A stretch of DNA of 64,000 bases from a virus. The stretch covers positions 1-64,000 of the IMG/VR virus record IMGVR_UViG_3300026484_000351; one strand, given 5' to 3'. The notes under the pieces are model-generated. The model did not search any database, was not told the DNA's origin, and saw only the letters and a program-made list of their open reading frames with translations. Position numbers and translations under genes: made by a program. Each line of letters opens with the position of its first letter. The stretch's first letter is position 1. Of the stretch, positions 18,159-49,026 are shown piece after piece.

Positions 18159-18449
18159 ATGAAAATAGTAGATATAAATGGAATAGAATATTTGGGATAT
18201 GTTAGTTTAACTACACAGCCAAAAACATCTTATTTCTTACAAGTGAAAAGTTTAATACCTGAAATGACAGCATTCAAAGAAACTCTAAGAAATAGGGGCG
18301 AGGGAATAAGTTACTCAAATCATATTAGTTATTTTAATGTTAATGGCAGACCGAGAGGAACAATTTCTGTTAATAGTTTATTTGAAACGAGAGAATTAAT
18401 TGAATTCTCTGAACAATATGAGGTTAAATTTCCGGAGTACACATTATAA
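18159..18449 (+). CDS. PE-tail family protein
   Basis: Ends KFPEYTL. Confidence 0.65.
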   Translation: MKIVDINGIEYLGYVSLTTQPKTSYFLQVKSLIPEMTAFKETLRNRGEGISYSNHISYFNVNGRPRGTISVNSLFETRELIEFSEQYEVKFPEYTL

Positions 18450-18475
18450 GTTCAAGAGAAGGTACGGCAACATCA

Positions 18476-18835
18476 ATGAAACCAATGAAACCAACAGTAA
18501 AACCGGAGCTAGCACTTGTACAAGAAGACAGTAGCGAAGCAAACATAGTGACAGTTCTATTGTCATCTATTATTGTGATTTTATTAACAGTGATTCTAAA
18601 CACAAATTATTCCGGGCACAAAACACAAAATAAAATGGTTTATCAACAAAAGCAAGTTACCAAAGTTATTGTAAAAGAAAGGGAACCACTTATAAATTTA
18701 AGCAATAATGAGAAAGCAGCATTATTTTTAATTATTCCAAGTGGTGTTATTCTTTATTTTATATTTACAGGAATTGGTGCAGGTGCAAGAGCAGGTAAAC
18801 AAAAAATTGATAGCTTCGGCAGAAAATATATTTAA
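18476..18835 (+). CDS. Two-TM membrane protein with RKYI C-terminus
   Basis: Two hydrophobic helices; ends GRKYI. Confidence 0.6.
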   Translation: MKPMKPTVKPELALVQEDSSEANIVTVLLSSIIVILLTVILNTNYSGHKTQNKMVYQQKQVTKVIVKEREPLINLSNNEKAALFLIIPSGVILYFIFTGIGAGARAGKQKIDSFGRKYI

Positions 18836-19917
18836 GGAAATTAAAATGGCTTTAACAATAGATGAAATGAAGAGAAACGAAAGTAAAATGTTTTACGATA
18901 TGTATCCAAGAATGGGTTTATGTCAAGATTATTCTTTAGATGGTATTACTAAAAAAGAACTATTTGAAGGGGTATCCGAATTAGATATTAGAAATAACAC
19001 AAAGTTTGTTCAAGCACCTTGTTGGCATGTAGAAGGAATAAAATTCAATGAGGAAATCACTGCAGAGCAAATTACATTTGCAGCTAGAATGACAATGGCA
19101 CAAATGCAATGTGATAGTATTGAAATGGATGAAGAATCTTTAAATTCATTAAAAGCAAAATATTATGGAAATTCTATCAAAAAATAGTAAATTTAATCTC
19201 TTCTTAAAGTTAATATGTTATAATTATTGTAGAATTTAACAAAAAGACATAAAATGAATAATTACTTACATCAAATTACAAAGTCAGCAACACCAGAGGT
19301 TGGAACACCAGCAACATTTTTATCTTATACAGATAGAAATCCAGGAGTAGTTACTAAAATTAATTCACCTAAAAATATAGAAATCGCTTATGTAGAAACT
19401 AAAACCTTACCAAACCCAAATACAAAAGATGGTTCTTATGAAATGGGAGAAGTTCGACAATACAAATATACCGTTGATTTAACAAGACAGGTTCAGTTTA
19501 TACTTTAAGAAAAAAGGTAACTGGCAAATGAAAGGCTGTGCTTTAAATAGTGGATGTGGTAAAGTTATAACAAACAAAATATAAAAGGTTAAAAAATGAA
19601 GATTATCTTAATTCTATTAATTACTTTAAGTCTTTATGCTGAGACTTTTAAGGAATATAAGGACACTGTAGGTAAAGATATAGTTGCGTTTGATAAAAAA
19701 TACGGTGCTGTTCTTTATATTAAAATAATCCAGAAGCATATTATATATTTCATAAAGTAAATGGGAAGTTTTTAGTAAAAATTATTATGGTAGATAATTA
19801 CTCTAAACTCGATTTAATAACGATGACTTATCTTGATTATAAACTAAAACTTGAAAAACAACTAGAAACAAGATTAAGAGTGTTTAATTTAATACAAAAA
19901 ATAAAGAAGGAGAAAAA

Positions 19918-20775
19918 ATGGCAAAGGAAAACAGTAGGGTAGAGTCATTGGGTACTAGAATGAAGGAATATGAAGCGCAGTCAGAAGTTAGAATTAATCC
20001 TAAAGATCATATAATAATTCGTATTGATGGTCACAAATTTTCTAAATATACTAAAGGAATGCAAAAACCATTTGATAAAATATTTAGTAAAGCAATGGAA
20101 CTTACTACAATTGATGTTCATAATGAATTTAGTGCTGTTATTTCTTATACACAAAGTGATGAAATCACATTAGTTTTACCAAGTCTTATGAATGCTGATA
20201 AACATAAAGGTCAAAATAAACCAAAATGGGAACATACTTCAGGTGGTAGAACACAAAAACTAGCATCATTAGTATCAGGTTTTACCACAATGAGTTTTAA
20301 TAAACATTTTCATTGTGAAGTAAATAACTATCAAGACGAAAAAGGTATTGACCCTGATTATCTTTGGAAAATGAGAAGTAAAGAATATAAAGCTTGGTTT
20401 GATTGTAGGGTATTTGGTGTGCCATCGGATGAAGAAGCATTTAATGCAGTAATGTGGAGAATTCGAGACTGCACTAAAAATTCAAGAAGCATGTTTGCAC
20501 AGACTTATTGTAGCCATAAAGAATTACAAAATAAAACAGCCTTAGAACAGGTGCAATTTTGTAAAGAAAAAACCGGAAAAGATTGGGAGTTAATTGAAGA
20601 CCGTTATAAGTATGGAGTTTTAGTAAAGAAAGAAAAATACTTAAAACCTGTTTTTGGAGGTTCTATGGATTATACTCAAAATGAATTTGTAGAAAGAAGT
20701 AGAGTTGTAACATATAGTGAAAAATTAACTTTTAGCGATAAAGCAGTTCAAAAAATTATGAGAAAATATTTGTAA
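19918..20775 (+). CDS. thg1: tRNA(His) guanylyltransferase / Thg1-like 3'-5' polymerase
   Basis: RIDGHKF, YTQSDEI, FDCRVF and WR..DC..NS motifs. Confidence 0.92.
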   Translation: MAKENSRVESLGTRMKEYEAQSEVRINPKDHIIIRIDGHKFSKYTKGMQKPFDKIFSKAMELTTIDVHNEFSAVISYTQSDEITLVLPSLMNADKHKGQNKPKWEHTSGGRTQKLASLVSGFTTMSFNKHFHCEVNNYQDEKGIDPDYLWKMRSKEYKAWFDCRVFGVPSDEEAFNAVMWRIRDCTKNSRSMFAQTYCSHKELQNKTALEQVQFCKEKTGKDWELIEDRYKYGVLVKKEKYLKPVFGGSMDYTQNEFVERSRVVTYSEKLTFSDKAVQKIMRKYL

Positions 20776-20789
20776 AAAGAGGAATTTAA

Positions 20790-21188
20790 ATGGTATTCAA
20801 AAAACAAAAAGAATGGTTTAGTTTACAGCAATGCATTGATAATCCAGATAAATTATATATTTTTGGTGATAATACATTTAGAAAAGGCACTTGTGGACAA
20901 GCGCAGATTAGACATTGTGATAATTCCTATGGAATTTGTACAAAATGGGCACCCAATACAACCGATGGTGCTTATTTTTCCGATACCATTAACTGTTTAG
21001 AAATAGTTGAAAAAGATATTTTGACTTTAATTAAATTATCTAAAGAGGGAAAATATAAGGAAATTATTTTTCCTTTGGAAGGAATAGGTTCAGGTTTATC
21101 CAAAATGCCTCAAAAATGTCCTTTGCTTTATAGAAAAATGAATAGATTATTTAAAAAGTACTTTGATATATCTTACAATAATTTATAA
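20790..21188 (+). CDS. Conserved phage protein (FGDN..R.G..GQA family)
   Basis: YIFGDN...GQAQIR...GI.TK..P...GIGSGL. Confidence 0.6.
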   Translation: MVFKKQKEWFSLQQCIDNPDKLYIFGDNTFRKGTCGQAQIRHCDNSYGICTKWAPNTTDGAYFSDTINCLEIVEKDILTLIKLSKEGKYKEIIFPLEGIGSGLSKMPQKCPLLYRKMNRLFKKYFDISYNNL

Positions 21189-21201: not shown

Positions 21202-21993
21202 ATGTTAATGGAAGATTCTAATGTAGTTTTAAAACTAACGGGAATAATTAATGAACTAACTAACATTATTGCTGATTTAACCAAACTAAGAAAATTGCCC
21301 ACAGAAGTAGATTTTGAAAAAATAAATACAACTGAAAAAATAGTTGAAGTTATTAAAGAAGAACCAGTAGAAGTAGTAAAAGAAATACCAGTAGAAGTAA
21401 TAAAAGAAGTAGAAAAAATAGTTGAAGTTGAAGTAGTAAAAGAAATACCAGTAGAAGTAATAAAAGAAGTAGAAAAAATAGTTGAAGTTGAAGTAGTAAA
21501 AGAAATACCAGTAGAAGTAATAAAAGAAGTAGAAAAAATAGTTGAAGTTGAAGTAATAAAAGAAATACCAGTAGAAGTAATAAAAGAAGTAGAAAAAATA
21601 GTTGAAGTTGAAGTAATAAAAGAAATACCAGTAGAAGTAATAAAAGAAGTAGAAAAAATAGTTGAAGTTGAAGTAATAAAAGAAATACCAGTAGAAAAAA
21701 TAGTTACTAATAAACCATATTCTGAGATTGAGGAAATGAAGATAAAAGCGCCTAGTGGTCCGGCACCGCACAAATTCCCGAAACACCTTTACTATAAGGA
21801 AATAGAATTAAGTCAATATCAGGGTGAGTTGTTATATAAACCAAGATATATTCTTCAACCCAATCAAAAGGCGTACGGAATTCAGGATGAATGGAATGTA
21901 ATTGTAACATTTAAAGAAGACAAATATATTACAGAGCATCCTCAGGAACATTTTAATAATCACATTTTAACAAGGAAACATAATGGCAATTGA
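21202..21993 (+). CDS. Late protein with Val/Glu/Lys-rich (articulin/alveolin-like) repeats
   Basis: EIPVEVIKEVEKIVEVEV(V/I)K x~5; TATAAATA at 21184-21191. Confidence 0.7.
   Translation: MLMEDSNVVLKLTGIINELTNIIADLTKLRKLPTEVDFEKINTTEKIVEVIKEEPVEVVKEIPVEVIKEVEKIVEVEVVKEIPVEVIKEVEKIVEVEVVKEIPVEVIKEVEKIVEVEVIKEIPVEVIKEVEKIVEVEVIKEIPVEVIKEVEKIVEVEVIKEIPVEKIVTNKPYSEIEEMKIKAPSGPAPHKFPKHLYYKEIELSQYQGELLYKPRYILQPNQKAYGIQDEWNVIVTFKEDKYITEHPQEHFNNHILTRKHNGN
21364..21704 (+). repeat. 60-bp tandem repeat, ~5.5 copies
   Basis: Successive 60-nt lines 21361-21700 are near identical. Confidence 0.95.
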
Positions 21994-22210
21994 TATGAAA
22001 GATTCAATAAAAATTTTACAAAAAATAAGAGAAGCATTAAATAAAAAGACAAATACTACACTTCAAGTAAACGGAAATAATAAGGCAGGGATAAGTTTTG
22101 AACGATTTCATCAGAATAATACTATTTCACCAGATGAAATGTTTGGAGACCAATTATACGGTCATCCATTAATTAAAGAAATGCTTGATGTAAAGAAATA
22201 AAGAAAAGGA

Positions 22211-22711
22211 ATGGCAAAAGAACAAAGTTATGGAATATGCCCATATACAATTATATTAGGAAACTTTTTTGTTTTATTAAATAAAACATCTGAGGAAAGC
22301 TATTATAACTTCTTTAAAGGTAAAATCGAAGAAGGAGAAACTACTGAGCAATGTGCTCAAAGAGAATTTTTTGAGGAAACAGGAGTTAAAGTAGATTCTA
22401 AAGATTTTGAAGATTATTTCTTTCAAAAATCCTCTAGAAAAGATGTAGGTATTTTTCTTGTTGATTGGGCAAGATATCAACAATTTCCTTTTTATTTTCA
22501 AGAAAAAGAAATCTGGAGTGCGACTTGGGTTAGATTAAAATCTATTGAGGTTTCTAAAAATCAACAAGAAATTATTAATTCTATTGAATTATTGTTTAAA
22601 CCACGGTTTCAGCAGTTAAGGAATATTTGTTTTCCAACAGCTAATATAAATAACATAAATGAACTTACCAAAAATGATAGAACTAATAAGTTTTCTTCGG
22701 TTAAAAAGTAA
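22211..22711 (+). CDS. Nudix hydrolase
   Basis: KGKIEEGETTEQCAQREFFEETG Nudix box. Confidence 0.9.
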   Translation: MAKEQSYGICPYTIILGNFFVLLNKTSEESYYNFFKGKIEEGETTEQCAQREFFEETGVKVDSKDFEDYFFQKSSRKDVGIFLVDWARYQQFPFYFQEKEIWSATWVRLKSIEVSKNQQEIINSIELLFKPRFQQLRNICFPTANINNINELTKNDRTNKFSSVKK

Positions 22712-22842
22712 CAAATGAAGAATAATGTCTTTAAGGGCTCTTATCATTCATATTAGTGACAACGATTATGAGTTCAACAACGGATATGTGCAAATTTATC
22801 TAACCCAGATTGTCAATTTAGTAAAATTTTAAAGGAGTAAAT

Positions 22843-23001
22843 ATGATATATTTAATAGTTCTGAGTTTTCTGGTCTTGAAAATAATGAGTTTAGTTATTA
22901 TACACAATAAAGTTAAGAAAAACAATAAAGTTAAGAAAAACAATAAAGTTAAGAAAAACAATAAAGTTAAGAAAAACAATAAAGTTAAGAAATATATTTA
23001 A
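22843..23001 (+). CDS. Small TM peptide with (N)NKVKK x5 and KKYI C-terminus (52 aa, not in ORF track)
   Basis: AAGGAG RBS; MIYLIVLSFLVLKIMSLVIIHNKVKK(NNKVKK)4YI*. Confidence 0.6.
   Translation: MIYLIVLSFLVLKIMSLVIIHNKVKKNNKVKKNNKVKKNNKVKKNNKVKKYI
22904..22992 (+). repeat. 18-bp tandem repeat ACAATAAAGTTAAGAAAA, ~5 copies
   Basis: Four exact copies plus 17 nt. Confidence 0.95.
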
Positions 23002-23057
23002 TGTTGTTTTAAGAATAATATGTTATAATTATATATATTAAAATAAGGAAGTCACAA

Positions 23058-24107
23058 ATGACAACGGAAATAGTAGAAACATCAATAATTGAAACAGATA
23101 AAGCAACAAGATCTCAAAGTTCAGTAGCAGAGTTAGAAGTTGAATTCAGTGCATTTATTAAAGAAATGGAAGTTGCAAATAATTCAGTTTCAAGTAAAAT
23201 GCAAATGGACGAGTTAAATGAAATTAGTGATGAAGTTATTAAAGCAAAACAATATTTAACTTCTTTTGCGTCAGGTGAAAAGAAGACAGTTAGAGAACAA
23301 GCATATAGTCAATTAAAAGGTTTACCATTAATCGGAAACTGGGCCGGCAAAAAAGTAGTAGAAGTACAAGTGCAAGCAATGAAAGACGGTGGAGTTAAAG
23401 AAGTATTAAATAGCATTTTTGAATCTTTTGAAGTTAAGAAAAAACGATTAGTTGAATTGACTGTTATGGCAGAAGGAATGAGGAATAATTTAATCCATCA
23501 GGAAAAACAATTGGAAAAATATATTCAAAAATTGGATGAAATTATTGAAAATCCCCCAAGTATAGCTGATAAAATGAGAGCTTTAGATATGAGTATTATT
23601 GCAAATAGCCAACAACATATTACTAAAGATATGGTATATAATAATTTAGCTTTTATTATAGAACTTCTTGAAAACTTAATGATTAAGATTAGTAAAACAT
23701 TGCCAACCCTTAAAAATACTTTAAGTAACTCGTTAAATATTGTTGGTTCAATTAATAGTATTAAAGACGCAGTAGAAATGATGAATACATTAGAAAGTTT
23801 AACAAATGAAATATCTCAATCAAGTACTAACAACATTCAAGGTTTAATTGTTAATGTTACGGAATCATTAAGTGACGGGACTGATATTGAATTTTATAAA
23901 GATTCCCAAAAAAGAAATGAAGAATTTAACAAGACGCTTATAGATGCTAGAGTTAGACATATTGAATCAACAGTATCGAATTATGAAACTCTTAAAACAA
24001 TGCAAATAGATGCGAGTTCTCAGCTAGAACATAGAAGAAATGCTGAAATGAAAGCCCTAGGGATGACAGTAGATTCACTAAAAAAGGATACACAAATAGT
24101 TATATAA
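23058..24107 (+). CDS. Helical coiled-coil protein (possibly TelA-like)
   Basis: All-helical composition; early promoter at 23019; family call tentative. Confidence 0.45.
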   Translation: MTTEIVETSIIETDKATRSQSSVAELEVEFSAFIKEMEVANNSVSSKMQMDELNEISDEVIKAKQYLTSFASGEKKTVREQAYSQLKGLPLIGNWAGKKVVEVQVQAMKDGGVKEVLNSIFESFEVKKKRLVELTVMAEGMRNNLIHQEKQLEKYIQKLDEIIENPPSIADKMRALDMSIIANSQQHITKDMVYNNLAFIIELLENLMIKISKTLPTLKNTLSNSLNIVGSINSIKDAVEMMNTLESLTNEISQSSTNNIQGLIVNVTESLSDGTDIEFYKDSQKRNEEFNKTLIDARVRHIESTVSNYETLKTMQIDASSQLEHRRNAEMKALGMTVDSLKKDTQIVI

Positions 24108-24342
24108 GAGGGTTTAAACATTAAAACCCTCACTTCTCTAAGACTAAGCGAGATTGAGAAATCTAAACTTTTAATGAATAGTACACTTAGTTGTAACTTT
24201 TATAAAATCAACAACAAAAACTTCTTTAAATAGATTAAATCCAAATAATATTTGAAGTTATGAAAAGTTGCTATTTGTTAATAAGTTTAAACTTATTTTA
24301 ATGTTTAAAGTGTTATAATATAAAAAATAAATAAGGAAAATA

Positions 24343-24897
24343 ATGAAAAATTTTTATACAGCAGTTGAGTTAGGAAAGTTATCAGATGAAGAGTTAATTA
24401 AATTAACTTCTTTTGAAGGTGCCGGAGAAACATTTTTTTATTCTAATATTCAAGTAGTGGGAGAAGATAATAGTGAATTTTGTTTTAAACTTAAAAATGG
24501 TGAAGAAATCTTCACCAAAAATGTCAACTTAATTAGAGAGATTAAACACGGTAAAGCAAGATATGATTTACTTGCAAAATCATTAGAGAATATGAATACT
24601 GAAAAAGATTCACACAAATCATTTCAAAATGAAATGAAACAAATGTTAAAAGATGAATTACAACATATAAATAAACAAGTTGAAACAAATAAAACAAATT
24701 TTGACTTAGGAATCCAAAGTAATAGTAAGAAGATAAATGAAGCACTTACAAGCATGGAAACAATGATTGAAAAAGCTGCAACTTCTTGGGATAATAAGAT
24801 AGATACTCTAAAGAAAGTAGATACAAGAAGATTGGATAAAATGATGTTACAAATGGAAACAATTACTAAAGCGTTTGGCCAATTACTAGAAGATTAA
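24343..24897 (+). CDS. Hypothetical protein with coiled-coil C-terminus
   Basis: Promoter variant at 24311 and RBS. Confidence 0.6.
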   Translation: MKNFYTAVELGKLSDEELIKLTSFEGAGETFFYSNIQVVGEDNSEFCFKLKNGEEIFTKNVNLIREIKHGKARYDLLAKSLENMNTEKDSHKSFQNEMKQMLKDELQHINKQVETNKTNFDLGIQSNSKKINEALTSMETMIEKAATSWDNKIDTLKKVDTRRLDKMMLQMETITKAFGQLLED

Positions 24898-35302: not shown

Positions 35303-36166
35303 ATGGAAACAGTTTACGGAATAGATTACACAAAACCAGAAGTTATGTTACTTCAAGAAACAGGATTGGGTGTACCTGAAATGGCCGCAAGGACTTGTTA
35401 TGACTCTTTTAATGCATCAGAAAATGAATGTATACCGAGATTAAATAATGCCATTAAAGCTCAGGATCTGACAGCGGCAACTCATTATTTAACCGAAGTT
35501 AATAATATTGAACACTCAGAATTACTTGATACTTTAGCTTGGACTCACTTCCATCACAGCATACTAGAACATACAAATTTATCATTTTTAATTAAAGGCA
35601 CTTCTAGAGGGGTTCTTCAGGAGCATGCTAGACACAGAATCCAAAATATATCTGTAAGAAGTACAAGATACACAATGAGCGGAATTATTAATGCATTTGC
35701 TGCAACAGTTAAAGAATCTTCAGGAAAAAATGCTTTTATTAGTTTGGTTTTGCCAATGAATATGTTTGTGACTTCGGATGATAGTTATAACAGAATAGAA
35801 ATTGGTGGAATATTTGACAAATTGATGTATCAATATAGATTACTTGGTAGAGAAAAATTTATGGAGATAGCAGTAGCAAAATCTAGTTTAGATTATGTTA
35901 ATAGTACAGAGCCTTATGCAATTAAATTTCAATTACTTCAAGATGGTAAGAAAAAAAGAAATGTTGGAGATGCGCTTAAGCACATCGTCACGGATAACTG
36001 GAAGGTTGATATGATTGTTACCATGAACCTAAGAGGATTAAAAAATTATTTCAATTTAAGAGATAGTGGAGCAGCATTTTTTCAAATAAGATGGTTAGCA
36101 AAAGCAATGAAAGAAGTTACACCTTCAAAGTATTTGGATCTGATAGTAAGAAACAAAGGTAAATAA
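35303..36166 (+). CDS. thyX: Flavin-dependent thymidylate synthase
   Basis: AARTCY, HHSILEH, SRGVLQEHARHR...SVRSTRY, MNLRGL..Y..LR and AFFQIR motifs. Confidence 0.93.
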   Translation: METVYGIDYTKPEVMLLQETGLGVPEMAARTCYDSFNASENECIPRLNNAIKAQDLTAATHYLTEVNNIEHSELLDTLAWTHFHHSILEHTNLSFLIKGTSRGVLQEHARHRIQNISVRSTRYTMSGIINAFAATVKESSGKNAFISLVLPMNMFVTSDDSYNRIEIGGIFDKLMYQYRLLGREKFMEIAVAKSSLDYVNSTEPYAIKFQLLQDGKKKRNVGDALKHIVTDNWKVDMIVTMNLRGLKNYFNLRDSGAAFFQIRWLAKAMKEVTPSKYLDLIVRNKGK

Positions 36167-37080: not shown

Positions 37081-37461
37081 ATGATAATAGAAAAGAAAGA
37101 AGTTAAAACAGTATGTGATTGCTGTTTAAAAGAATTAACAGATATTGATATATGGGCAAATAACGAAAGTTTTCGAGAACTGTACTTAAAACGAACACAA
37201 GATAATATTGATTTATGCTATACTTGTGCTGGTAAAATATTTTATAGAGAAGTTCAACAAAAAGTTCCAACTGAAAAAATGCGGGAATGGATAAAAAGTC
37301 TTAGAAAAGTGGAAGGCTCAAACTTAGTTGAAAGTGCTGGTGAAACGGGAAATAGGGAGAATGACAATTGTTCAAAGGAAATATTAGTTAAATCTAGTCC
37401 AAACAGTTCAAGTAATTCATTAAAGTCAATTGATGACCCGAAAAGTATAAAGGATTTATAA
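37081..37461 (+). CDS. Zn-finger hypothetical protein
   Basis: CDCC...DLCYTC. Confidence 0.55.
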   Translation: MIIEKKEVKTVCDCCLKELTDIDIWANNESFRELYLKRTQDNIDLCYTCAGKIFYREVQQKVPTEKMREWIKSLRKVEGSNLVESAGETGNRENDNCSKEILVKSSPNSSSNSLKSIDDPKSIKDL

Positions 37462-37934
37462 TGGGGATAGAAATAGAAAGAAAATTTTTAGTTAAAATGA
37501 AAAAAGGGCCAATGATAAGTAATAGAAAATATGAAATAACTCAAGGTTACATTTTAAATTTACCTGAAAAAGTTATAAGAATTAGAATATTTGATAATAG
37601 TACAGCTTATATAACTATTAAAGGTAAAAATGAAAATATGACAAGACCAGAATATGAGTATAATATTCCCTGCGCAGAGGGTGCAGAACTTATAAAAGTA
37701 ATGTGTACAGATATTATCACTAAAACGAGATATATATGCAATGTGAAAAATAGTAAATGGGAAGTTGATTTTTTCCACGGAGATAATGAAGGTTTAATTG
37801 TCGCAGAAATTGAGTTAAAAGATGAAGATGATCCTATAGATTACCCAGAGTGGATAGGAAAAGAAGTAACTGGCAAGAAGAAATATTATAACAATAATTT
37901 AATTAAAAATCCTTATAAAGATTGGAGTAAATAA
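37461..37934 (+). CDS. CYTH-domain triphosphatase
   Basis: EIERKFLV, QGY, RIR, KTRY, WEVD and AEIEL motifs. Confidence 0.92.
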   Translation: MGIEIERKFLVKMKKGPMISNRKYEITQGYILNLPEKVIRIRIFDNSTAYITIKGKNENMTRPEYEYNIPCAEGAELIKVMCTDIITKTRYICNVKNSKWEVDFFHGDNEGLIVAEIELKDEDDPIDYPEWIGKEVTGKKKYYNNNLIKNPYKDWSK

Positions 37935-38176
37935 TGGAAGTTTATGCAGATAAACTAGGCATTCCACTAAATGTCGGAGATAGAGTTATAATAGCCAGTG
38001 GTGAAACACAAGATTCTTCTATTTATTTAGGAACAGTTAGTGAATTATCTGTATCAAGATATGGTTCAAAACAAGTTAAAGTAAAAAAAGATGGTGGTTC
38101 AATAAATAAAAGAGAACCTGAAGATGTTTTAAGTTTAGTTATTTATGGGAATAATTGTCCCGAAGTTTTTATATAG
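37934..38176 (+). CDS. PE-tail family protein (SH3/KOW-like)
   Basis: LNVGDRVII; ends NCPEVFI. Confidence 0.65.
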   Translation: MEVYADKLGIPLNVGDRVIIASGETQDSSIYLGTVSELSVSRYGSKQVKVKKDGGSINKREPEDVLSLVIYGNNCPEVFI

Positions 38177-38184: not shown

Positions 38185-38526
38185 ATGGCAGATATTTTAA
38201 GTCAAGATGAAATTAATGCTCTTTTAGATATTCCTGATGAAAACTCAGGTGAACCAGATTTTGGTTCACCTGAGTTTAAAAAATTATCAGATGCTTTTAA
38301 CAAAGCATTTCACAAAGTATTTAAGAGAACAGATTTTTATAGAGAAAAAGTGGAACAGAGTGGTTATATTCCTAGAATCCGGGGAACAAATCCTAAAGAT
38401 ATGATGGACAGTTTAAAGTGCGAAGAAGAATATTTTCAGAGTACATTAAAGAATTATAAAAAATTTAAAGAATTTCACAAGAAATTTAAGAAGATAGCAG
38501 ATGAACAACCTGAAATTTTTATTTAG
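38185..38526 (+). CDS. PE-tail protein with FliM N-terminal CheY-binding peptide mimic
   Basis: AGGAG RBS; starts MADILSQDEINALL; ends EQPEIFI. Confidence 0.8.
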   Translation: MADILSQDEINALLDIPDENSGEPDFGSPEFKKLSDAFNKAFHKVFKRTDFYREKVEQSGYIPRIRGTNPKDMMDSLKCEEEYFQSTLKNYKKFKEFHKKFKKIADEQPEIFI

Positions 38527-39482: not shown

Positions 39483-40775
39483 ATGAACATAACACAAGTA
39501 TTACCTATAATGGCGGCAAGTAAAAAGACGGGCGATGTTGTACTAATGAGAGGACTGCATGGAATAGGTAAAAGCGCTATAACAGTACAATATGCAGATC
39601 AGTATAATCTTGGTCTAGAGATATTAATATTATCTCTAATGGAACAAGGCGATTTAATCGGAATACCAAACATTACTAATAATACAACTACTTGGGCAGC
39701 ACCTGACTGGTTAAATAATTTAAGAGATAAAGCATGGCCTAAAAGATTTAATTTTGAAGATTTAGAATTTAAAGATAAAAATTTTGAAGAAGAAGTCAAC
39801 AAACATTCAAAAAATGCAATACTTAGAGAAAATTTAAATAAATTATATAACGAGTTTTATAATGTTAATTTAATTGAGCCTGTTTTAACAAAACAGGATA
39901 ATGTTTCTTGTAGATTGTCTAAAGAAACTGTATTATTTGTTGATGAATATTCAAGAGCTGGTGCAGACATACATAACAGCACAATGCAATTAATATTAGA
40001 CAAAAGACTTCATAATCATGTATTGCCTTATGTTAATGGTGTACAAACACAGATAATTGCTGCAGATAATCCCGCTGACGGTGATTACCATGTAACTGAA
40101 TTAGACCCAGCCAAATTAGATAGATTTTTAATTATTGATGTAGAAGTTGATGCAAAAGCGTGGTTGGCTTGGGCAAGAGAAAATGAGGTTAATTCTATTG
40201 TAAGAGATTTTATTATGAATAACCTAACAAAAATCCATTATGTTCCGGAAGACCAAAGTCAAACAGGAGCAACACCGAGGTCTTGGACTATGCTAGGAAA
40301 ATTTGTAAACCTTTTTGAAACTATTCCTGAAGAAAGTATTTTTCCAATTATTAGAGGTAAAGTGGGTAGCTCATTAGGAGCACAATTCTATACATATTAC
40401 AATGATTATAATAAAAATGTAAGTATTGAAGACATTCAAAAGATTATAGACCAAGAATTCTTTAAACAAGGCGATAATATTGACTTAGAGAAAATTGGAA
40501 AAGTTGTTAAGGAACTAACAAAAGAAATGGAAGGCGTAACTAAAATGGAGTATGCAGAAGAATTATTTTCGGCCATTAAAACTGAAATTAACGATGCTAA
40601 AGGGGTTGAAAATGTAATCCATGTTCTTGGCTTTTTATACTCACTTGATTTGGAAATCCTAACTTCATTACTTAAAGAATGGAAAAACAATGAAAAAGAA
40701 GCATTTTATGGATTAATGAAACTTGATCCTAAGAAGGCACTTGCCTTAAAAATTAAAAGTAAAGTTCAAAAATAA
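39483..40775 (+). CDS. MoxR-like AAA+ ATPase
   Basis: GLHGIGKS, LFVDEYSRA, AADNP, LDPAKLDRF and TPRSW motifs. Confidence 0.9.
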   Translation: MNITQVLPIMAASKKTGDVVLMRGLHGIGKSAITVQYADQYNLGLEILILSLMEQGDLIGIPNITNNTTTWAAPDWLNNLRDKAWPKRFNFEDLEFKDKNFEEEVNKHSKNAILRENLNKLYNEFYNVNLIEPVLTKQDNVSCRLSKETVLFVDEYSRAGADIHNSTMQLILDKRLHNHVLPYVNGVQTQIIAADNPADGDYHVTELDPAKLDRFLIIDVEVDAKAWLAWARENEVNSIVRDFIMNNLTKIHYVPEDQSQTGATPRSWTMLGKFVNLFETIPEESIFPIIRGKVGSSLGAQFYTYYNDYNKNVSIEDIQKIIDQEFFKQGDNIDLEKIGKVVKELTKEMEGVTKMEYAEELFSAIKTEINDAKGVENVIHVLGFLYSLDLEILTSLLKEWKNNEKEAFYGLMKLDPKKALALKIKSKVQK

Positions 40776-41023
40776 TGAATAAAATACTTTTAAATGATGT
40801 TTTAAAAGTTAAAAATGATTTTTGGGAGGGAAGGAACCCAGAAATTATAGGTTTAGTATCAGAAGTTCATACCGATTCTAAAGTATATTTTATGAATTTT
40901 ATAAATGGTATAGATGCACTCCCAACTGTTTCTAATGGGTTTTATATTAAAGAAAATGATATAATTGAAAATTTTGGAAATATCAAAGTTTTTAAAGATA
41001 AGTATCCAGAATATTTTTTATAA
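40775..41023 (+). CDS. PE-tail family protein
   Basis: Coupled to the MoxR gene; ends KYPEYFL. Confidence 0.7.
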   Translation: MNKILLNDVLKVKNDFWEGRNPEIIGLVSEVHTDSKVYFMNFINGIDALPTVSNGFYIKENDIIENFGNIKVFKDKYPEYFL

Positions 41024-41364
41024 TTTTTCTTATGAGCATAAGTTAGATAGTTATGGAAAAATAAATAATAAAAATATGTTGGTCGATTATGGCAACTAAA
41101 ACAAGTCCGGGTATAGGTGATTTTCTACTACACTCAAGTAAATCTGGTAGAAATATGATAGTTGAGATTATGGAAATTTTTATAACGGATTCTTGTAGTG
41201 TTATAATAGCAAAGAAATATAAATTTATATAAAGAATATAAATCTATATAATAGTATAAAAAGTTATACTATCCTTATTTACTGCTTCTAAGTAACTTCT
41301 ATAGAACAATTTCTATAGTGGTATAAGAACTCCACAGTCATTAATTTTTTATACTGGTTAGGTA

Positions 41365-42543
41365 CTATTCTATCCTAGCCAGTCTTAATGCTTCATTTAG
41401 TATGTTTATAGAAGCATTTATATCTCTATCTTCTTCAAAACTGCATTCAGAACATGAGTATATTCGCTCTTCGAGCGATAAACTCTCTTTTACTGAACCA
41501 CATCTTGAACAGGTTTTAGAGGAAGGATAATAAGTATCTATTCTAGATATACTAACTTGGTTTTCGTTAGCTTTATACTCTATTTTAGATACTAAATCAC
41601 TCCATGCTATATTAGATATAGCTTTAGACAATCTTCTATTTTTAATCATATTTTTTACTTGAAGACTTTCTAAACCTATAAAATCATATAGATTGATTAG
41701 TTTTTTGGATACCTGATGATTTATAGTGTTTCTTGAATTCTTTATTTTATTATGCACCCTAGCTACTTTTAATCTAGCTTTATTTCTATTTTTGCTTCCT
41801 TTCTTCTTTTTACTTAGTTTTCTTTGTTCTAATTTAAGTTTTCTTTGGTACTTATATGTTAATTTATGATTTTCTATAGTATATCCATCAGAACATATTA
41901 TCATATCTTTAAGACCTAAATCTATACCTACTTTCTTATTGGTTTTCTTTCTATTATTCTTTACTTCTATCTTATGTGTTATGGTTATTCAGTACTTATC
42001 TAGGTTATCTTTTTCTATAGTAAAACCTGTTATTTTACCTATATTATGGTTTGTTTTATGTTTCTTAAATTTTATTTTATGGTCTTCTTTAGTATAAGAT
42101 GACTTATTGCTTTTATTTAATTGTATATGGTTATCTTCTATTTTAACTCTAGAACCAGCCTTCATACCTATAGTCTTTTTAGATGTCTTTTTACTCTTAA
42201 ATTTAGGATATCCTCTATCTGGTTGTTTTATAAATTCCTTCATACCAAGATATAAATTAGATAAACTAGATTGTATAAAATCATTAGGTAATTTATTAAT
42301 AAAAGAATATTCTTCTTTTAATTTAGTACTAAAACCTACTATACCAGTTTGATTAGGTATCTTAGGTCTCACTTGACCTTTATTTTTGCCTTTTTCTATA
42401 GTGTACACACCAAAATAATTATCTTGTATCTTACCTAAAACATTATTATAGGTAAATCTATAGAGGTTAAATTGTTTATCTAATAATGCTTTTTGTTTAG
42501 CATTAGGATATAGTCTATATTTGTTTGTTCTTACTAATTCCAT
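41365..42543 (-). pseudogene. tnpB: TnpB with an in-frame TGA (392 codons)
   Basis: YRLYPN HTH, GIDLG, IGLESL, CSRC/CSEC and DRDINASINI; single TGA at 41989-41991 in DKY*ITI, and the frame continues. Confidence 0.9.
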
Positions 42544-42576
42544 ATTTAACCCCTTTATATTTATTTATACAATTAT

Positions 42577-43176
42577 TTATATAATATTATTTTTAAGATT
42601 TTCTTGTACAGATTTTAACATCTTTCTTCTATTACTATACATTTTCATACTAAAATGATGTATTATAGATATTAAATCCTGTGTTAATTCAGTTTGAAAA
42701 TCTTCTTCTTTGGTAAAATTTATATATACTATATCTGTTCCATAACTACTAAACCATTTTTCTATATAATTATAGCCAAATCTAGTAAGTCTATCTTTAT
42801 AAGAAATATATATAGTATCTATATTACCATTTTGTACTTCTTTAATAAGAGCATTAAAACCCTTCCTATCTTCATTCATTCCAGAAGCTATATCTTTATA
42901 TACCTTATCTACTATAATACCTTTAGAAGCAATAAATTCCCTTAATATTTTTTCTTGCTTTTCTAAGTCTTCTTTTTGTTTAGTATTACTTACTCTACAA
43001 TATATAACTTGATTTTTATCTTTGGGTTTTGTGAGCATTAAACTATCTATATCATATAAGAAATTCCTACTATTTAATTCTTTGTATTTAACCTTTCCTT
43101 GTCTTCTATAATTATTTAAAGTTTGACTTGTAATGCCCAAAATCTCTTTTATTTTCTTAGCGTTTATATAACTCAT
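42577..43176 (-). CDS. tnpA: IS607 serine transposase
   Basis: N-terminal MerR-like HTH, YCRVSN...Q, DIASG and DRLTRFG motifs. Confidence 0.93.
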   Translation of the reverse strand: MSYINAKKIKEILGITSQTLNNYRRQGKVKYKELNSRNFLYDIDSLMLTKPKDKNQVIYCRVSNTKQKEDLEKQEKILREFIASKGIIVDKVYKDIASGMNEDRKGFNALIKEVQNGNIDTIYISYKDRLTRFGYNYIEKWFSSYGTDIVYINFTKEEDFQTELTQDLISIIHHFSMKMYSNRRKMLKSVQENLKNNII

Positions 43177-43390
43177 TTATTTCCTTTTATATTTATTTAT
43201 ATATTAAGTAATTTTATTATATAATTTATTATAGATAGAAAGTTATTAATTATAGGTGCAAAATAATGTTTATTATTGGAGAAAAAGGTCCGGCACCTCT
43301 TAAAGGTACTATTGCTTATGTTACTAATTATGATTTATGGATAAATTGCAATTTAGAAGAAATCCCTAGTAAATATCCGGAGGTATATAT

Positions 43391-43870
43391 TTGAAAATAA
43401 ATGAATTAAAAATAACTCACACCAATGGAGATTTATATTCCGGATATACGATTGAACTTAACAATATTACTAAATATTTTGAACACAATGAGAAATTTCA
43501 AGAAGCAGGAATGTTCACAACTAGAAAAATGAAACAACTTTTAGAGGACCCAGAATTCCTAGACTTTGTAATAAGTAATTACAAGTCTTCAGAACCAGTT
43601 GTTGATTTTGATTCTCTAATAGTAGAAAAGGGAGTATCAAAATCAATGCAGGTGCTATTTTATCGTTCTAGAATAGCAATGAATTATTTTGGAGTGATAA
43701 CCGAAATGTTAATGAAACTCCGAAATCGAAAAACGATTTTAATTAAACTAGAAGACCCCTTAAAAAACTTTAATATAGAAACAATCGTAAAACTACAAAA
43801 TAAAGAAGAAATGAAGGAGTTTTTTGATTATCAATATATTGAAAACAAATACCCGGAGATGTATATATGA
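43391..43870 (+). CDS. PE-tail family protein
   Basis: Ends KYPEMYI. Confidence 0.7.
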   Translation: MKINELKITHTNGDLYSGYTIELNNITKYFEHNEKFQEAGMFTTRKMKQLLEDPEFLDFVISNYKSSEPVVDFDSLIVEKGVSKSMQVLFYRSRIAMNYFGVITEMLMKLRNRKTILIKLEDPLKNFNIETIVKLQNKEEMKEFFDYQYIENKYPEMYI

Positions 43871-44133
43871 AAAAAAGAGAAGTATTAAAAGGTGATTATG
43901 TTTTAATAAAAGACCGTAATGATATTCAGCATGTTGTAAGAGTAGATGCTGTTGTAAAAATAGATACGATAAAACCTTCAAAAAAAGTCCAAGCGTATGC
44001 AAGTACTATTATTAAAAGTATAGATAAAAGTAATCTTAATACCACCACATTTTATGATAAAGATGTACAACTAATATTAGGAGCTATAAATGCTCGAACA
44101 CTAGAAACAGAATATCCTGAGATATTTCTATGA
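43867..44133 (+). CDS. PE-tail family protein
   Basis: KGDYVLI; ends EYPEIFL. Confidence 0.7.
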   Translation: MKKREVLKGDYVLIKDRNDIQHVVRVDAVVKIDTIKPSKKVQAYASTIIKSIDKSNLNTTTFYDKDVQLILGAINARTLETEYPEIFL

Positions 44134-44399
44134 TTGGTAAATTTGTATTAATAAAAACAGATAATATTATTGAAAAAGGTTCGAAGCACTCAGAAGATCA
44201 ACCTTGTTATTTTGTGGTAAATATAATAGAAAAGAGTAAAATTGGCAGAGATTGGAAATCAAAAGTTCTTTGGTTTTATGATGTTGCATATAATGAATTA
44301 CATTTTTTTAAAAAAGATATATTGTTTGAATTTGAAAAAGAACCATCTTGGAGAGAGATGGAAAACATGGAAGGAACACATCCAGAGTACTGGTTATAA
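44130..44399 (+). CDS. PE-tail family protein
   Basis: Ends THPEYWL. Confidence 0.7.
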   Translation: MIGKFVLIKTDNIIEKGSKHSEDQPCYFVVNIIEKSKIGRDWKSKVLWFYDVAYNELHFFKKDILFEFEKEPSWREMENMEGTHPEYWL

Positions 44400-44421: not shown

Positions 44422-44742
44422 ATGGTAGATGACCAACTGAATATTTTAAAAATATATTCAGAAAAGGGTTTAGATGACATTAGAAAATTAAGAACTATCC
44501 ATGTAAGTAAATTTGAAAAATTAAAATTTAATGGAAATTATGGAAGTTCAACTGTTTTTCCGTTTTATGATATTAATGAGGCAAAAATAGTTACTGCTAT
44601 TAAACAGGTTCAGGGATTAAAGGAACAAGCAATTAATTATGAGAATAACGACTGGAAAATTAATGAAAATTTCAAAAGTATAGATAAAACTCAAGAGTGG
44701 TTGAAAAAGAAGGAAAAAATTTATCCAGAGTACTTCGTTTAA
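44422..44742 (+). CDS. PE-tail family protein (start uncertain)
   Basis: Ends IYPEYFV; the track start at 44242 overlaps the previous gene. Confidence 0.6.
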   Translation: MVDDQLNILKIYSEKGLDDIRKLRTIHVSKFEKLKFNGNYGSSTVFPFYDINEAKIVTAIKQVQGLKEQAINYENNDWKINENFKSIDKTQEWLKKKEKIYPEYFV

Positions 44743-45022: not shown

Positions 45023-45643
45023 ATGATACATAATTTTTTAATAGAGTCTTTGAATGATATTGAAGGTATTAATAAAATACAGCATAAACTACAAGATACT
45101 TTGTTAAGACCAGCAAAAATCCCTAAGGGAACAGCGGCATTATATTTTAGTGCAAGTGAACTTTCTCGAATAGTTACTAAATTTTTAGATATTAAAAAGA
45201 AGTTTATTGAATTAGATTTATTTAAAGATGAGTTTGATAGATGTAATTATTTTAAAGTTTCTGAATTAGATACACTTACTTTAATAGAACATAATTTGAT
45301 GCTTTGGGATTTAAATTATGAAAGTTTATTTGCCACTTTAAAGTATGAAATAAACGATTTAACAGAAAGAATAAAAAGAGCACCATTAAATTGGTATAAT
45401 AAGCATGCTTATTTAATAAATAATGAGACTTATATTGACAAAAAATATTTTAGTATTTACAGAATAGTTGATAAAAATTGGGATACTTTAACAATCACCT
45501 TAGAATGTTGTAAGTATAGTACCCATTCGAAAAGTCTTTCAATAGATATAGTTAAAATTAAATGTGATAGTATTAGAGATATATATCAAGAACAGTTTTT
45601 AAGTGAAGAAATAGGGAAGATTTACCCCGAATGGTTTTTATAA
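45023..45643 (+). CDS. PE-tail family protein
   Basis: Ends IYPEWFL. Confidence 0.7.
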   Translation: MIHNFLIESLNDIEGINKIQHKLQDTLLRPAKIPKGTAALYFSASELSRIVTKFLDIKKKFIELDLFKDEFDRCNYFKVSELDTLTLIEHNLMLWDLNYESLFATLKYEINDLTERIKRAPLNWYNKHAYLINNETYIDKKYFSIYRIVDKNWDTLTITLECCKYSTHSKSLSIDIVKIKCDSIRDIYQEQFLSEEIGKIYPEWFL

Positions 45644-45652: not shown

Positions 45653-46996
45653 GTGGAAAAAGCAACAGTAGAGAAATTATATAACGAGCAGGATAGGGAA
45701 TGTATAGATTCCACCTTTGCTAATATGTTTTCTAGTCCAGCATACAGAGAAGATTATGTTTTTTATGCTCATATATTGGCGCAATGTAAAGTAATTATGA
45801 CAAGCGATGTTGATTTAGCAGGAGTAAATTTTACAATTAACAAGTATAACCTTTTTATTAATCCAGAAAGATTTCTTGAATTACCCCTTTTGGAAAGAAT
45901 GTCAGTACTTAAACACGAATCGCTTCATATTCTTTATGGGCATATTTCAAGAAAGGGAGACAGAAACCATAAATTATTCAATAACTCTTCAGATGTTGCA
46001 ATTAACCAGCTTATCACGAGAGAACATTTACCTGAAGGCTGTCTTTACCCTGATACTCTTGAAAAGGCTCTAAAGGAACAAGGTTATAAAATAAAAGTAC
46101 CTGAAATGCTTTCAGCAGAACATTATTATGATTTACTTCCTTCAGAAATAAAAGATAATGCCGAGAATGGACAATGTAATAGTGGAGAAGGAAATCCTCA
46201 AAATTGTGAAAAATGTGGTGGAGCTGGTAAAGAAGAAGACGGAAAACCTTGTAAACATTGTAATGGAACGGGTAAAGAATTCTACAAAGGTTTATTTAAA
46301 GATAATCCACTTGATGACCATAGCAAATGGAATGAGTCAGAAGGAGAATCTGACTTACAACAGGACATCACAAAAAGAATGATTGATAAAAGTATTGAAA
46401 AATCAAGAGGAAACACGCCTTCTCATTTAGAGTATTTTATGGAATTATGGGGGAAAAAAGCACAAATTAGTTGGAAAAAAGTTCTTAGAAATATCGCAAG
46501 TAATAAAAAAGCAAATAAAGTAACAACTATTATGAGAAAATCAAGACGGTTCCCAAATAGACTTGAAATTAGAGGCCATAAGAAAGACAAAATCTTTGAT
46601 ATTGTAGTTATATTAGATGTTTCGGGGAGTATGTCAGATAAAGAAATTATTACTGGACTGGCAGAAATTCGTGAAGTAGCAAAACTTACGGCAAGTACTG
46701 TTAAAATTATTCAAGTTGATACAGAAGTGCATGCAGTAGAGGATTTTACGCCAGGCAAATTTAATAGAAGTGCAGGTGGTGGAACAGAAATGCTACCAGG
46801 ATTTAGATACATTAAGGAGAATAAGGTATCGCATGATGCTATTATTTTAATTACAGATGGATGGATAGAGGATATTTCATACTGGGCAAAAGAAGGTGTA
46901 GCACCAAAATGTCCTTTAATGATTCTTAGCACTGAAGCAGATATTGATGTTTCAGGATACAGAAATTATAGATTTTTCAAACTAGATCAAGCGTAG
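45653..46996 (+). CDS. Metallopeptidase-VWA protein (DUF2201-like), MoxR partner, with DnaJ-like Zn finger
   Basis: HESLH, N...D.AIN, CEKCGGAG...CKHCNGTG, DDHSKW, MIDAS DVSGSM, GGGT and ITDG motifs. Confidence 0.88.
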   Translation: MEKATVEKLYNEQDRECIDSTFANMFSSPAYREDYVFYAHILAQCKVIMTSDVDLAGVNFTINKYNLFINPERFLELPLLERMSVLKHESLHILYGHISRKGDRNHKLFNNSSDVAINQLITREHLPEGCLYPDTLEKALKEQGYKIKVPEMLSAEHYYDLLPSEIKDNAENGQCNSGEGNPQNCEKCGGAGKEEDGKPCKHCNGTGKEFYKGLFKDNPLDDHSKWNESEGESDLQQDITKRMIDKSIEKSRGNTPSHLEYFMELWGKKAQISWKKVLRNIASNKKANKVTTIMRKSRRFPNRLEIRGHKKDKIFDIVVILDVSGSMSDKEIITGLAEIREVAKLTASTVKIIQVDTEVHAVEDFTPGKFNRSAGGGTEMLPGFRYIKENKVSHDAIILITDGWIEDISYWAKEGVAPKCPLMILSTEADIDVSGYRNYRFFKLDQA

Positions 46997-47006: not shown

Positions 47007-47270
47007 ATGAATTATTATGAAAATGCTAATATGCAATTTGAAAAAAGAGAACCAATTAGATATTATTTTGATGGTAAAGATCTCAAAGGAATTTATAATA
47101 TAGATTCTGGAAAAAATCTAAAAAAATCTATTTTAAAAAGAAAATTCAAGATAGGCTCATTAAAAAGTGTTGATATAGCCGAATATAGAGAACTAGGATT
47201 ATTTCATAGTTATCATAAAAGTATTTCAAAAGAAAAGGCAGAAAAATTATATCCAGAATTTTTTATATAA
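47007..47270 (+). CDS. PE-tail family protein
   Basis: Ends LYPEFFI. Confidence 0.7.
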   Translation: MNYYENANMQFEKREPIRYYFDGKDLKGIYNIDSGKNLKKSILKRKFKIGSLKSVDIAEYRELGLFHSYHKSISKEKAEKLYPEFFI

Positions 47271-47279: not shown

Positions 47280-47561
47280 ATGAGTTTAAAGAATATTAAA
47301 GTATTTAATCAAAATGAATATATTGGTAAAATTATCAAACTTCAAATGAAAGGTACTAACAATATAGGTTTTTATGAAGTTGTTAAATTTAACAGTTATA
47401 TATCTTGTAGATTAATTTATACTATTGAGAAAGGAACAATAAGAAAACAATTTAAAACTAATAGATGTGTCTTATTTGACATTAAAGATTTTTTTAATAG
47501 TGAATTCTTAAATTGTAAACCAGAGGAATTTGAAATTAAATACCCTGAATATTTTATATAG
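47280..47561 (+). CDS. PE-tail family protein
   Basis: Ends KYPEYFI. Confidence 0.7.
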   Translation: MSLKNIKVFNQNEYIGKIIKLQMKGTNNIGFYEVVKFNSYISCRLIYTIEKGTIRKQFKTNRCVLFDIKDFFNSEFLNCKPEEFEIKYPEYFI

Positions 47562-47569
47562 GAGAGAAA

Positions 47570-47785
47570 ATGAATGAATTAGATAAATATTTTAATAAAA
47601 AAATGTCATTCAAAGACATATTTACTAAAGATGGAAGTGGTTCTTTTAGTGAAGATTTTGATGTCCGTACTATAAAGGACAGAAAAATGGAAAATATAAA
47701 AAATTATATCAAAGAACATTATGATATGAGTTTGGATGAATTAGATGAATTTATAATGAAATATGAACCTGAAAGGACTGTATAA
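47570..47785 (+). CDS. Divergent PE-tail protein
   Basis: Ends KYEPERTV. Confidence 0.55.
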   Translation: MNELDKYFNKKMSFKDIFTKDGSGSFSEDFDVRTIKDRKMENIKNYIKEHYDMSLDELDEFIMKYEPERTV

Positions 47786-48228
47786 TGGGTAAAATCTTAT
47801 ACGCAATTAAACCAATAGGTGTCACAAAGGGGTTTGGGCGAGTATATAACAAACAGTTATATATTGGTAAGTATGAAGTTATTAATGGTACTGACATTAA
47901 ATTAGTAGAAGTGCAGGACTTTAATAAAAATATAATTAAAAGACATTCATTTCCAGCGTCACTAAAATATGGCTCATACAATGGAATACAAACAGAAGAT
48001 GTTGGTAGTGAAAATATCTATTCTGGAATGCCCAACACCAATTCGGTAATATTATTTGTAACATTAGTCGAAGCCAAATTACAAAAATTAATAGATATAA
48101 AATATATTAAGATATATTTTGAAAAGGAACTAAGAAAACTTCAAGAAAGAGCAGAAAATAATCTACCTAAAAATATTGAAGAAATTTTTGAGGAATATAG
48201 TGGTAAATACCCGGAATATTTAATATGA
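47785..48228 (+). CDS. PE-tail family protein
   Basis: Ends KYPEYLI. Confidence 0.7.
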   Translation: MGKILYAIKPIGVTKGFGRVYNKQLYIGKYEVINGTDIKLVEVQDFNKNIIKRHSFPASLKYGSYNGIQTEDVGSENIYSGMPNTNSVILFVTLVEAKLQKLIDIKYIKIYFEKELRKLQERAENNLPKNIEEIFEEYSGKYPEYLI

Positions 48229-48788
48229 TTAATTCAGGTGAGCATTTTGAAAATTATATTAGTCACAAAGATATTAAAATTTATTTTGATAACAATAAAG
48301 ATAAAACCCAAATGAAATTATTTACCTCTTATTATGGATATATAACTGTTAATGGCAGAAAAACATCCCTTCAAGAAGATTATAAAGTTGAACCAGTTGA
48401 AATTGTATTATCTGTAGAAAATAAAGAACTTTGTGACCCGTTCAGAAATATGGATAATCTTATGAATGGATTAGATGAAAAACATAATACAGGTTTAAGC
48501 TCAGATAGTTTTAAAAACCCCGAGTTGACAGAATGGCAACCTTTACCCAAAGATACATTAACCTATTTTGATTGGCATGTAACTTTAACAACTCAAAATT
48601 CAGATATAGAAATTGATAAAGGAATTATAGAAAGACTTAAATTTTTTCATACAATGGAACAGGCAGAAATGAATTATATTAAAATGATGGAATATAAATT
48701 TAAAGAATTAGGAATATTTGAAGCATTTGATAAATATAATGAATTATATAATTCATTAAGTAATAAATATCCTGAAGAATTTATATAA
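48225..48788 (+). CDS. PE-tail family protein
   Basis: Ends KYPEEFI. Confidence 0.7.
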   Translation: MINSGEHFENYISHKDIKIYFDNNKDKTQMKLFTSYYGYITVNGRKTSLQEDYKVEPVEIVLSVENKELCDPFRNMDNLMNGLDEKHNTGLSSDSFKNPELTEWQPLPKDTLTYFDWHVTLTTQNSDIEIDKGIIERLKFFHTMEQAEMNYIKMMEYKFKELGIFEAFDKYNELYNSLSNKYPEEFI

Positions 48789-48828
48789 AAATGAACAATT
48801 ACTTAAAAAACTTTATTTAAGGAACTAT

Positions 48829-49026
48829 ATGAATACAGAAATAATTATTGAACCTTTAAATTTTCAAAGCAATTATTTTATTTGTGAAGTAAGATATAAA
48901 GTTGGTAAAAGTATAGTCGTTGCCGAAGGAATTGTAATGCTTACATTAAAAGACTTAACTAAAACAGTTCCTTTGCATTGTACTTTAAAGAACTTTGAGG
49001 AAGAGCATCCAGAGTTTTTCTTATAA
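48829..49026 (+). CDS. PE-tail family protein
   Basis: Ends EHPEFFL. Confidence 0.65.
   Translation: MNTEIIIEPLNFQSNYFICEVRYKVGKSIVVAEGIVMLTLKDLTKTVPLHCTLKNFEEEHPEFFL

Follow-up and report, generated by a model that had tools for sequence, protein, structure and literature searches.

The 64,000 nucleotides of viral DNA analyzed here, positions 1 to 64,000 of the IMG/VR record IMGVR_UViG_3300026484_000351 and hereafter called the window, carry the genes of a MoxR-type AAA+ ATPase and a metallopeptidase-vWA protein, surrounded by open reading frames (ORFs) whose products are dissimilar in their bodies and share the same short ending, P-E-x-x-x-stop. As judged from the sequences compared, this tail was never seen apart from one clade of the vWA protein in the genomes examined, and the converse fails because distant versions of the pair, in Bacillus phage AR9 and the phage genome G037, exist without the tail. 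We propose that the tail is a C-terminal address motif read by the phage's own peptidase-vWA/MoxR machine, a reading that we hold tentatively and regard as somewhat short of probable.

The viral contig from which the window was taken (G000) is 96.8 kb long, has a G+C content of 28% and was estimated by CheckV to be 37% complete. The region is present in three hydrothermal-vent metagenomes and in no listed RNA sequencing run, and a Megablast search of it against a phage collection gave no match. All of the 17 + strand ORFs that the initial annotation had listed as ending in P-E-x-x-x were found in the window at their coordinates, and one more (85355–85633), lying beyond the window, brings the number in the whole contig to 18. 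None of the − strand ORFs has this ending. Among the 150 + strand ORFs of at least 40 amino acids (aa), Pro-Glu stands at offset −5 in 17, while each of the other offsets from −2 to −30 yielded 0–1 ORF. When residues were shuffled within each ORF, the tail appeared 0.27 times on average and three times at maximum (2,000 trials). Counting against a shuffled expectation was the check that the initial annotation had named for its motif, and the excess was obtained in the register of −5 alone. Fifteen of the 17 tagged ORFs fall between 37.9 and 49.0 kb and surround the genes for MoxR and the metallopeptidase-vWA protein, as had been described. Searches of Pfam and PHROGs assigned no informative family to the tagged proteins of the window or to ten larger tagged proteins of its relatives.

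The initial annotation had defined the motif by Pro at −5, Glu at −4 and a hydrophobic last residue. This definition holds, and the actual consensus is tighter and reaches further upstream: hydrophobic residues at −13 and −10, [Y/H/F] at −6, P at −5, E at −4, [Y/L/E] at −3, [F/L/Y/W] at −2 and [I/L/V] at −1. The tails draw on every one of the four Pro codons, on both Glu codons and on all three stop codons, and the residues flanking Pro-Glu are kept as amino acids while their codons vary. Furthermore, a family of ~140 aa, represented by the tagged ORF at 47785–48228 in the window and by genes at 130375 in Vibrio phage phiKT1024 and 15748 in G004, retains the tail (KYPEYMI, KFPEYLI and KYPEYLI) among orthologues that are 48–69% identical. 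From the codon variety, the flanks conserved as amino acids and the tails retained by the orthologues, we conclude that the constraint on the tail acts on the peptide. The same peptide is fixed at the C-terminus of unrelated proteins, as in a C-terminal short linear docking or degron motif. We considered and rejected a PEP-CTERM or PEF-CTERM sorting signal, as just three residues follow Pro-Glu before the stop codon, leaving no room for a transmembrane helix and a basic cluster. The earlier claim that selection acts on the peptide and not on a DNA site stands in its first half only, as the choice of Pro and Glu codons is also skewed. The skew is toward CCR and GAG in G000, phiKT1024 and G002 and is strongest where the next start codon overlaps the stop codon: in phiKT1024, purine-rich tails account for 36 of the 39 cases with such an overlap versus 25 of the 37 elsewhere. 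The tail Pro and Glu codons thus act as a ribosome-binding site as well. In G024 (L166–L177), all of the 33 consensus tails use CCY for Pro (27 CCT and 6 CCC), the opposite of the skew in the three genomes above, while the bodies of the tagged genes in G024 use CCR about half the time.

The MoxR gene (39483–40775, + strand; Pfam AAA_5, E = 1.4e-7; phrog_1297, E = 1e-55) shows the AAA_5-type core and the vWA partner in the same array that characterize MoxR AAA+ proteins, and its stop codon overlaps the start of the following tagged gene at 40775. The metallopeptidase-vWA gene (45653–46996, + strand) encodes DUF2201_N (Pfam, E = 5e-18) followed by DUF2201 and matches phrog_1314. Its zinc-site motif HExxH..H (H88, E89, H92 and H97), which predicts a zincin-like metallopeptidase, and its metal ion-dependent adhesion site (MIDAS), D-x-S-x-S...T...D (D322, S324, S326, T378 and D402), are both invariant in 23 relatives. 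In an AF2 model (predicted local distance difference test, pLDDT, of 80), the C-terminal half adopts a Rossmann-like vWA fold; its comparison with the vWA domains of integrin I, complement C2a/Bb and CLCA1 gave Z scores of 11–12 and root-mean-square deviations of 2.6–3.2 over 129–149 residues. Foldseek with the vWA half placed the vWA domain of CLCA1 at the top (E = 6e-5), and Rea1-MIDAS was also matched. The window protein also bears an insertion at residues ~174–210 (46172–46282) with two CxxCxGxG repeats, a DnaJ-type zinc-finger motif, which is absent from all five relatives in the vWA alignment. The pair of MoxR and metallopeptidase-vWA in phages has been noted previously with a proposed role in virion assembly, and the tagged proteins were not mentioned (Iyer et al., 2021; PMC7824862). 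In AR9 (21869–24586), the genes for MoxR and the zincin-vWA protein lie directly behind an annotated early promoter and the genome has zero PE tails; this promoter fits an early function better than the role in virion assembly (PMC7824862).

To evaluate the association, we compared 12 genomes by BLAST of ORFs of at least 50 aa, and these fall into at least four lineages: one around phiKT1024 (G024, G032 and G035), one around Alteromonas phage AD45-P1 (G002, G003, G004 and G034), one of G000 and G001, and one of G033. Two to 20 ORFs are common between these lineages, and the peptidase-vWA gene is the sole family found in 12 of the 12 genomes, with MoxR in 10. In searches that started from the tail and were thus blind to the putative hub gene, DUF2201_N was carried by all six contigs that were at least 37% complete (G000, G002, G003, G004, G024 and G025). 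The vWA protein is matched by 314 of 50,697 phage records (0.6%), of which 11 are within this clade. The search that started from the vWA protein required an alignment as the query (a single vWA protein retrieved no loci); of the 18 loci that it found with at least 34% identity, 16 have consensus tails no further than 10 kb away, versus none of the six loci with at most 32%. The same trend was seen across whole genomes, which have 3–83 tails at vWA identities of at least 34%, one at 32% and none at 29% and 24%. The genomes with lower numbers, listed with their vWA identities to the window, are G032 (41%, 10 consensus tails), G033 (37%, five), G034 (35%, nine), AD45-P1 (34%, three), G035 (32%, one), the complete genome of AR9 (29%, none) and the complete genome G037 (24%, none). 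Within the loci, 31–38% of the genes immediately adjacent to the vWA gene or MoxR bear the tail, versus 9% of all + strand ORFs, a modest enrichment over a crude baseline.

Altogether, the co-occurrence of the tail and the pair, which the initial annotation had named as a check of its hypothesis, was recovered, and tail-rich phages lacking the vWA clade, which would have spoken against that hub, were not found among the six contigs from the tail-first searches. The idea of a hub is therefore supported by co-occurrence at the level of sequence. Eight residues are specific to the vWA clade (H40, C45, F60, Y65, R100, P301, Q354 and E363), and most of them are present also in G035 and G036, in which tails are rare or absent. 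An apparent 'HQV' tail in G037 turned out to be a wrong-frame reading of collagen-like repeats, and the genomes G037, G035, G033 and AR9 yielded no further C-terminal motif that is enriched.

Beyond the window, two pattern scans of IMG/VR (YPEYFI-TAA and YPE[L/F]FI-TAA) retrieved dense arrays of the tail in dozens of contigs with G+C contents of 20–45%, and the tagged genes amount to 20–35% of the genes in some phage genomes. For instance, there are 54 PE tails in G002 (103.5 kb, complete with terminal repeats), 38 in G024 (236 kb), 25 in G004 (56 kb) and 18 in G003 (83 kb). The tail is also abundant in cultured phages: the Vibrio phages phiKT1024, Va1, pv27 and phiTY18 each have ~80 tagged genes, and phiKT1024 (191 kb, 348 annotated features) has 82 + strand ORFs with the tail. 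When the last 14 residues were trimmed, the 199 tagged proteins of seven genomes separated into 164 BLAST clusters including 144 singletons. The tail marks many unrelated, mostly small phage proteins of early type. A few families are nevertheless shared. A tagged Pol-beta-type nucleotidyltransferase family (~290 aa, GG...DIDVFF) adjoins MoxR in phiKT1024, G003 and G004, is one of just three tagged proteins in AD45-P1, and has members at L067:7155–7988, L065:12627–13493, L012:9212–10351 and L075:683–1576. The hidden Markov model of this family has no match in G000 or G002, and the 206-aa tagged protein of the window, considered as a possible relative, was found unrelated when the alignments were compared by hhalign. 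The family of the tagged ORF at 37934–38176 (+ strand, 80 aa, ending in CPEVFI) has tagged homologues in G002, G003, G004 and phiKT1024. Its AlphaFold model (pLDDT of 72) is an SH3/Tudor-like beta-barrel in which the last 11 residues (70–80) have pLDDT values below 50; in this one modelled family, the tail is predicted to be a floppy appendage outside the fold. In G001, of which MoxR is 58% identical to that of the window, three tagged genes lie between MoxR and the vWA gene. In bacterial genomes, a scan for YPEYFI-TAA gave loci of which 80 were examined; 60 of these 80 have no ORF with the consensus tail, and no chromosomal use was seen. The arrays that the scan did retrieve belong to small contigs in metagenome bins and probably stem from phages. 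A full-text literature search found no published description of the tail.

If the peptidase-vWA/MoxR machine is the reader, the MIDAS face of the vWA domain would capture the tail, with the invariant Glu and/or the free carboxylate serving as a metal ligand. C3b provides its C-terminal carboxylate as a ligand to the MIDAS Mg of factor B. Alternatively, the tail may be captured in the peptidase cleft. MoxR would provide ATP-driven remodelling of the captured protein, and the HExxH site would then cut either the tagged protein itself, so that early proteins are processed or are turned over at a given time, or a host protein held by the tagged protein, which would act as an adaptor. In the accepted model for vWA-MoxR systems, the MIDAS takes hold of a peptide through an acidic residue, and the captured client is remodelled by MoxR (PMC7159879). 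One tagged protein bears on the adaptor mode. The N-terminus of the 113-aa product of 38185–38526 (+ strand, ending in QPEIFI), MADILSQDEINALLDI, matches the N-terminus of FliM of an Arcobacter metagenome-assembled genome, MAEFLSQDEIDALLDI, at 13 of the first 16 residues. The N-terminal peptide of FliM is the docking peptide for phosphorylated CheY (CheY-P), and the start of the phage protein looks like a mimic of that peptide. The layout of this protein, with a putative target binder at the N-terminus and the tag at the C-terminus, fits the proposed adaptors, and the FliM-like peptide hints at a host in Campylobacterota. In an extended form of the proposal, the vWA/MoxR clade would be a protease or remodeller directed by the tag, to which phages address as much as a third of their proteome, and at least some tagged proteins would be adaptors that bring it host proteins such as phospho-CheY to be cleaved or remodelled; we consider this form doubtful.

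Several observations weigh against a reader encoded by the pair. The pair is present without tails in AR9 and G037, so that reading the tail would be a clade-specific gain, and the number of tails spans from 1 to 83 with the same pair. The initial annotation described the tagged genes as a library clustered around the pair; this description is accurate for the window and fails for phiKT1024, where the tagged genes lie mostly far from the pair. No MoxR homologue was found in the incomplete contigs G033 (85% complete) and G035 (68% complete). There are about four independent lineages behind the co-occurrence, and several of the genomes were found via the vWA or MoxR gene, which makes their contribution circular. 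Finally, as tagged genes flank the pair, the two could have been transferred jointly by linkage alone.

The same facts can be turned toward a reader in the host. A conserved host protein may recognize the tail, either as a degron leading to ClpX, Lon or FtsH, or as a dock on a universal hub, so that early proteins are turned over or recruited together and the pair travels merely by linkage and shared descent. Such a reader would accommodate the pairs without tails in AR9 and G037 and the remoteness of most tagged genes from the pair in phiKT1024. The use of the tail in phages with G+C contents of 20–45%, and therefore probably in many hosts, points in the same direction, and hydrophobic C-termini resemble general non-polar C-terminal degrons. 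On the other hand, a Pro-Glu that is invariant and always in the same register speaks for recognition by a specific pocket over a generic degron, and the vWA clade is present in every tail-rich contig that is at least 37% complete, even though one would expect a passenger pair to be lost. The genes in the window lend no help either: the initial annotation had named ClpP as a possible partner of the tail, and the ClpP-like ORF at 15365–16111 best matches PHROGs of head maturation proteases (E = 3e-41), not stand-alone ClpP. No SspB (PF04386) was detected at E values of up to 0.1 in G000, G001 or phiKT1024. A ClpXP/SspB degron system encoded by the phage was thus rejected, and we consider recognition by a host protein unlikely.

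Another possibility is that the tail is read by a second phage protein that is too diverged or too small for BLAST clustering, or that the tails associate with each other and gather the early proteins into one assembly. G000 is just 37% complete and the comparison was made at BLAST-level sensitivity with a lower size limit on the ORFs, leaving room for such a protein; the conserved amphipathic pattern at −13, −10 and −6 followed by a hydrophobic tip would suit either version. Nevertheless, no other family is common to all lineages, and self-association explains neither the strict free C-terminus three residues past Glu nor the link to the vWA clade. We regard these two versions together as clearly improbable. 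A cis effect, in which termination and re-initiation for the next gene in the packed arrays would be adjusted by the peptide during its synthesis or by the CCN-GAR nucleotides as a ribosome-binding site, is suggested by the codon skew and its excess at stop/start overlaps in phiKT1024. Such an effect is difficult to reconcile with the use of all four Pro codons, with the uniform CCY of G024, which shows no Shine-Dalgarno-like sequence, with flanks conserved as amino acids in varied codons, and with the long gaps behind many tagged genes (e.g., after 41023 and 49026). As it also leaves the link to the vWA clade unexplained, we give it very little credence as the reason for the tail.

The other tagged ORFs of the window, all on the + strand, are as follows. 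Upstream of the main array lie 18159–18449 (96 aa, KFPEYTL), a positional outlier with an atypical Thr at −2 and among the weakest members, and 34334–34618 (94 aa, KLPEFFI). The genes for ThyX (Thy1; 35303–36166) and a CYTH-domain protein (37461–37934) are located just 5′ of the array. Behind MoxR, 40775–41023 (82 aa, KYPEYFL) is followed by an interrupted gene and then by 43391–43870 (159 aa, KYPEMYI), of which a tagged homologue comes after MoxR in G001, 43867–44133 (88 aa, EYPEIFL; its N-terminus is weakly OB/barrel-like), 44130–44399 (89 aa, THPEYWL) and 44422–44742 (106 aa, IYPEYFV). The 206-aa protein (45023–45643, IYPEWFL), which also has a tagged homologue in G001, is encoded immediately 5′ of the vWA gene. 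Downstream of the latter are 47007–47270 (87 aa, LYPEFFI), 47280–47561 (93 aa, KYPEYFI), 47570–47785 (71 aa, YEPERTV; a doubtful member and among the weakest), the conserved family member at 47785–48228 (147 aa, KYPEYLI), 48225–48788 (187 aa, KYPEEFI) and 48829–49026 (65 aa, EHPEFFL).

The interrupted gene consists of a 5′ part (41089–41200) and a 3′ part (43243–43394, ending in KYPEVYI), both on the + strand and separated by an IS607-type insertion sequence (IS) on the − strand (41201–43242), which encodes a serine recombinase (42577–43176) and TnpB in two ORFs (41365–41904 and 41989–42543). In a contig from another vent metagenome, position 41200 is joined straight to 43243 with the 2,042 bases of the IS missing, and the frame joined across the site reads through to give 87 aa ending in KYPEVYI; the split gene counted by the initial annotation is thus real. 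In word depth, the IS exceeds its flanks up to ~10-fold, so copies of the IS exist elsewhere in the community.

Among the known pairs of MoxR and vWA proteins, Rea1-MIDAS with Rsa4/Ytm1, CbbQ-CbbO, NorQ-NorD and RavA-ViaA share with the phage pair an intact MIDAS and the vWA fold; we know of no such pair with a proteome-wide client family bearing a single C-terminal peptide. The CLCA family, in which a self-cleaving zincin metalloprotease precedes a vWA domain, has the same domain order, and the likeness found here comes from the vWA domain only. Unlike the phage protein, CLCA proteins are eukaryotic and secreted, and have neither a MoxR partner nor a set of tagged clients. The nearest published analogue is the FxSxx-COOH modules beside bacterial vWA-MoxR ternary systems, in which small, fast-evolving proteins with a conserved C-terminal peptide are cleaved by a zincin peptidase (Kaur et al., 2020; PMC7159879); these modules are also attributed to Haft and Basu (2011), as cited in PMC7159879. 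The two share small, fast-diverging tagged proteins, a zincin-like peptidase and the genomic link to vWA-MoxR, so that the gene context of an FxSxx module is found in the window, with cleavage being predicted. They differ in that the peptidase is fused to the vWA domain in the phage, tens of tagged genes occur per phage genome instead of one precursor, and no radical-SAM partner was seen. The tail, [YH]PEx[FL][ILV], is a PExxx peptide and not an FxSxx, RxD or acidic one. The tail also resembles the ssrA tag and the SspB XB peptide for ClpX, the SSB tip, the C-termini binding the T4 gp45 clamp, and the acidic tails of T7 gp2.5 and gp4, in that a short C-terminal peptide on several unlike proteins serves one partner and in that a free C-terminus with a hydrophobic tip is needed. 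On the other hand, the sequence differs from any of these, the scale is 20–35% of the genes of a phage versus 3–15 proteins, and the reader here is a candidate. New in this study is the comparison of genomes, which points to a single vWA-peptidase clade as that candidate.

If the proposal that the phage's own machine reads the tail is true, a rule of six residues would assign hundreds of early proteins now listed as 'hypothetical' to one shared fate, in many phages that are marine, from vents or relevant to aquaculture, and the widespread, uncharacterized phage pair of MoxR and peptidase-vWA would gain its first clients. The idea is directly testable in the cultured Vibrio phages with ~80 tagged genes each, and the tail might be transferred to other proteins in order to target them in infected cells. 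The tail and its reader would then constitute a viral counterpart of the systems that combine a degron with an AAA+ protease.

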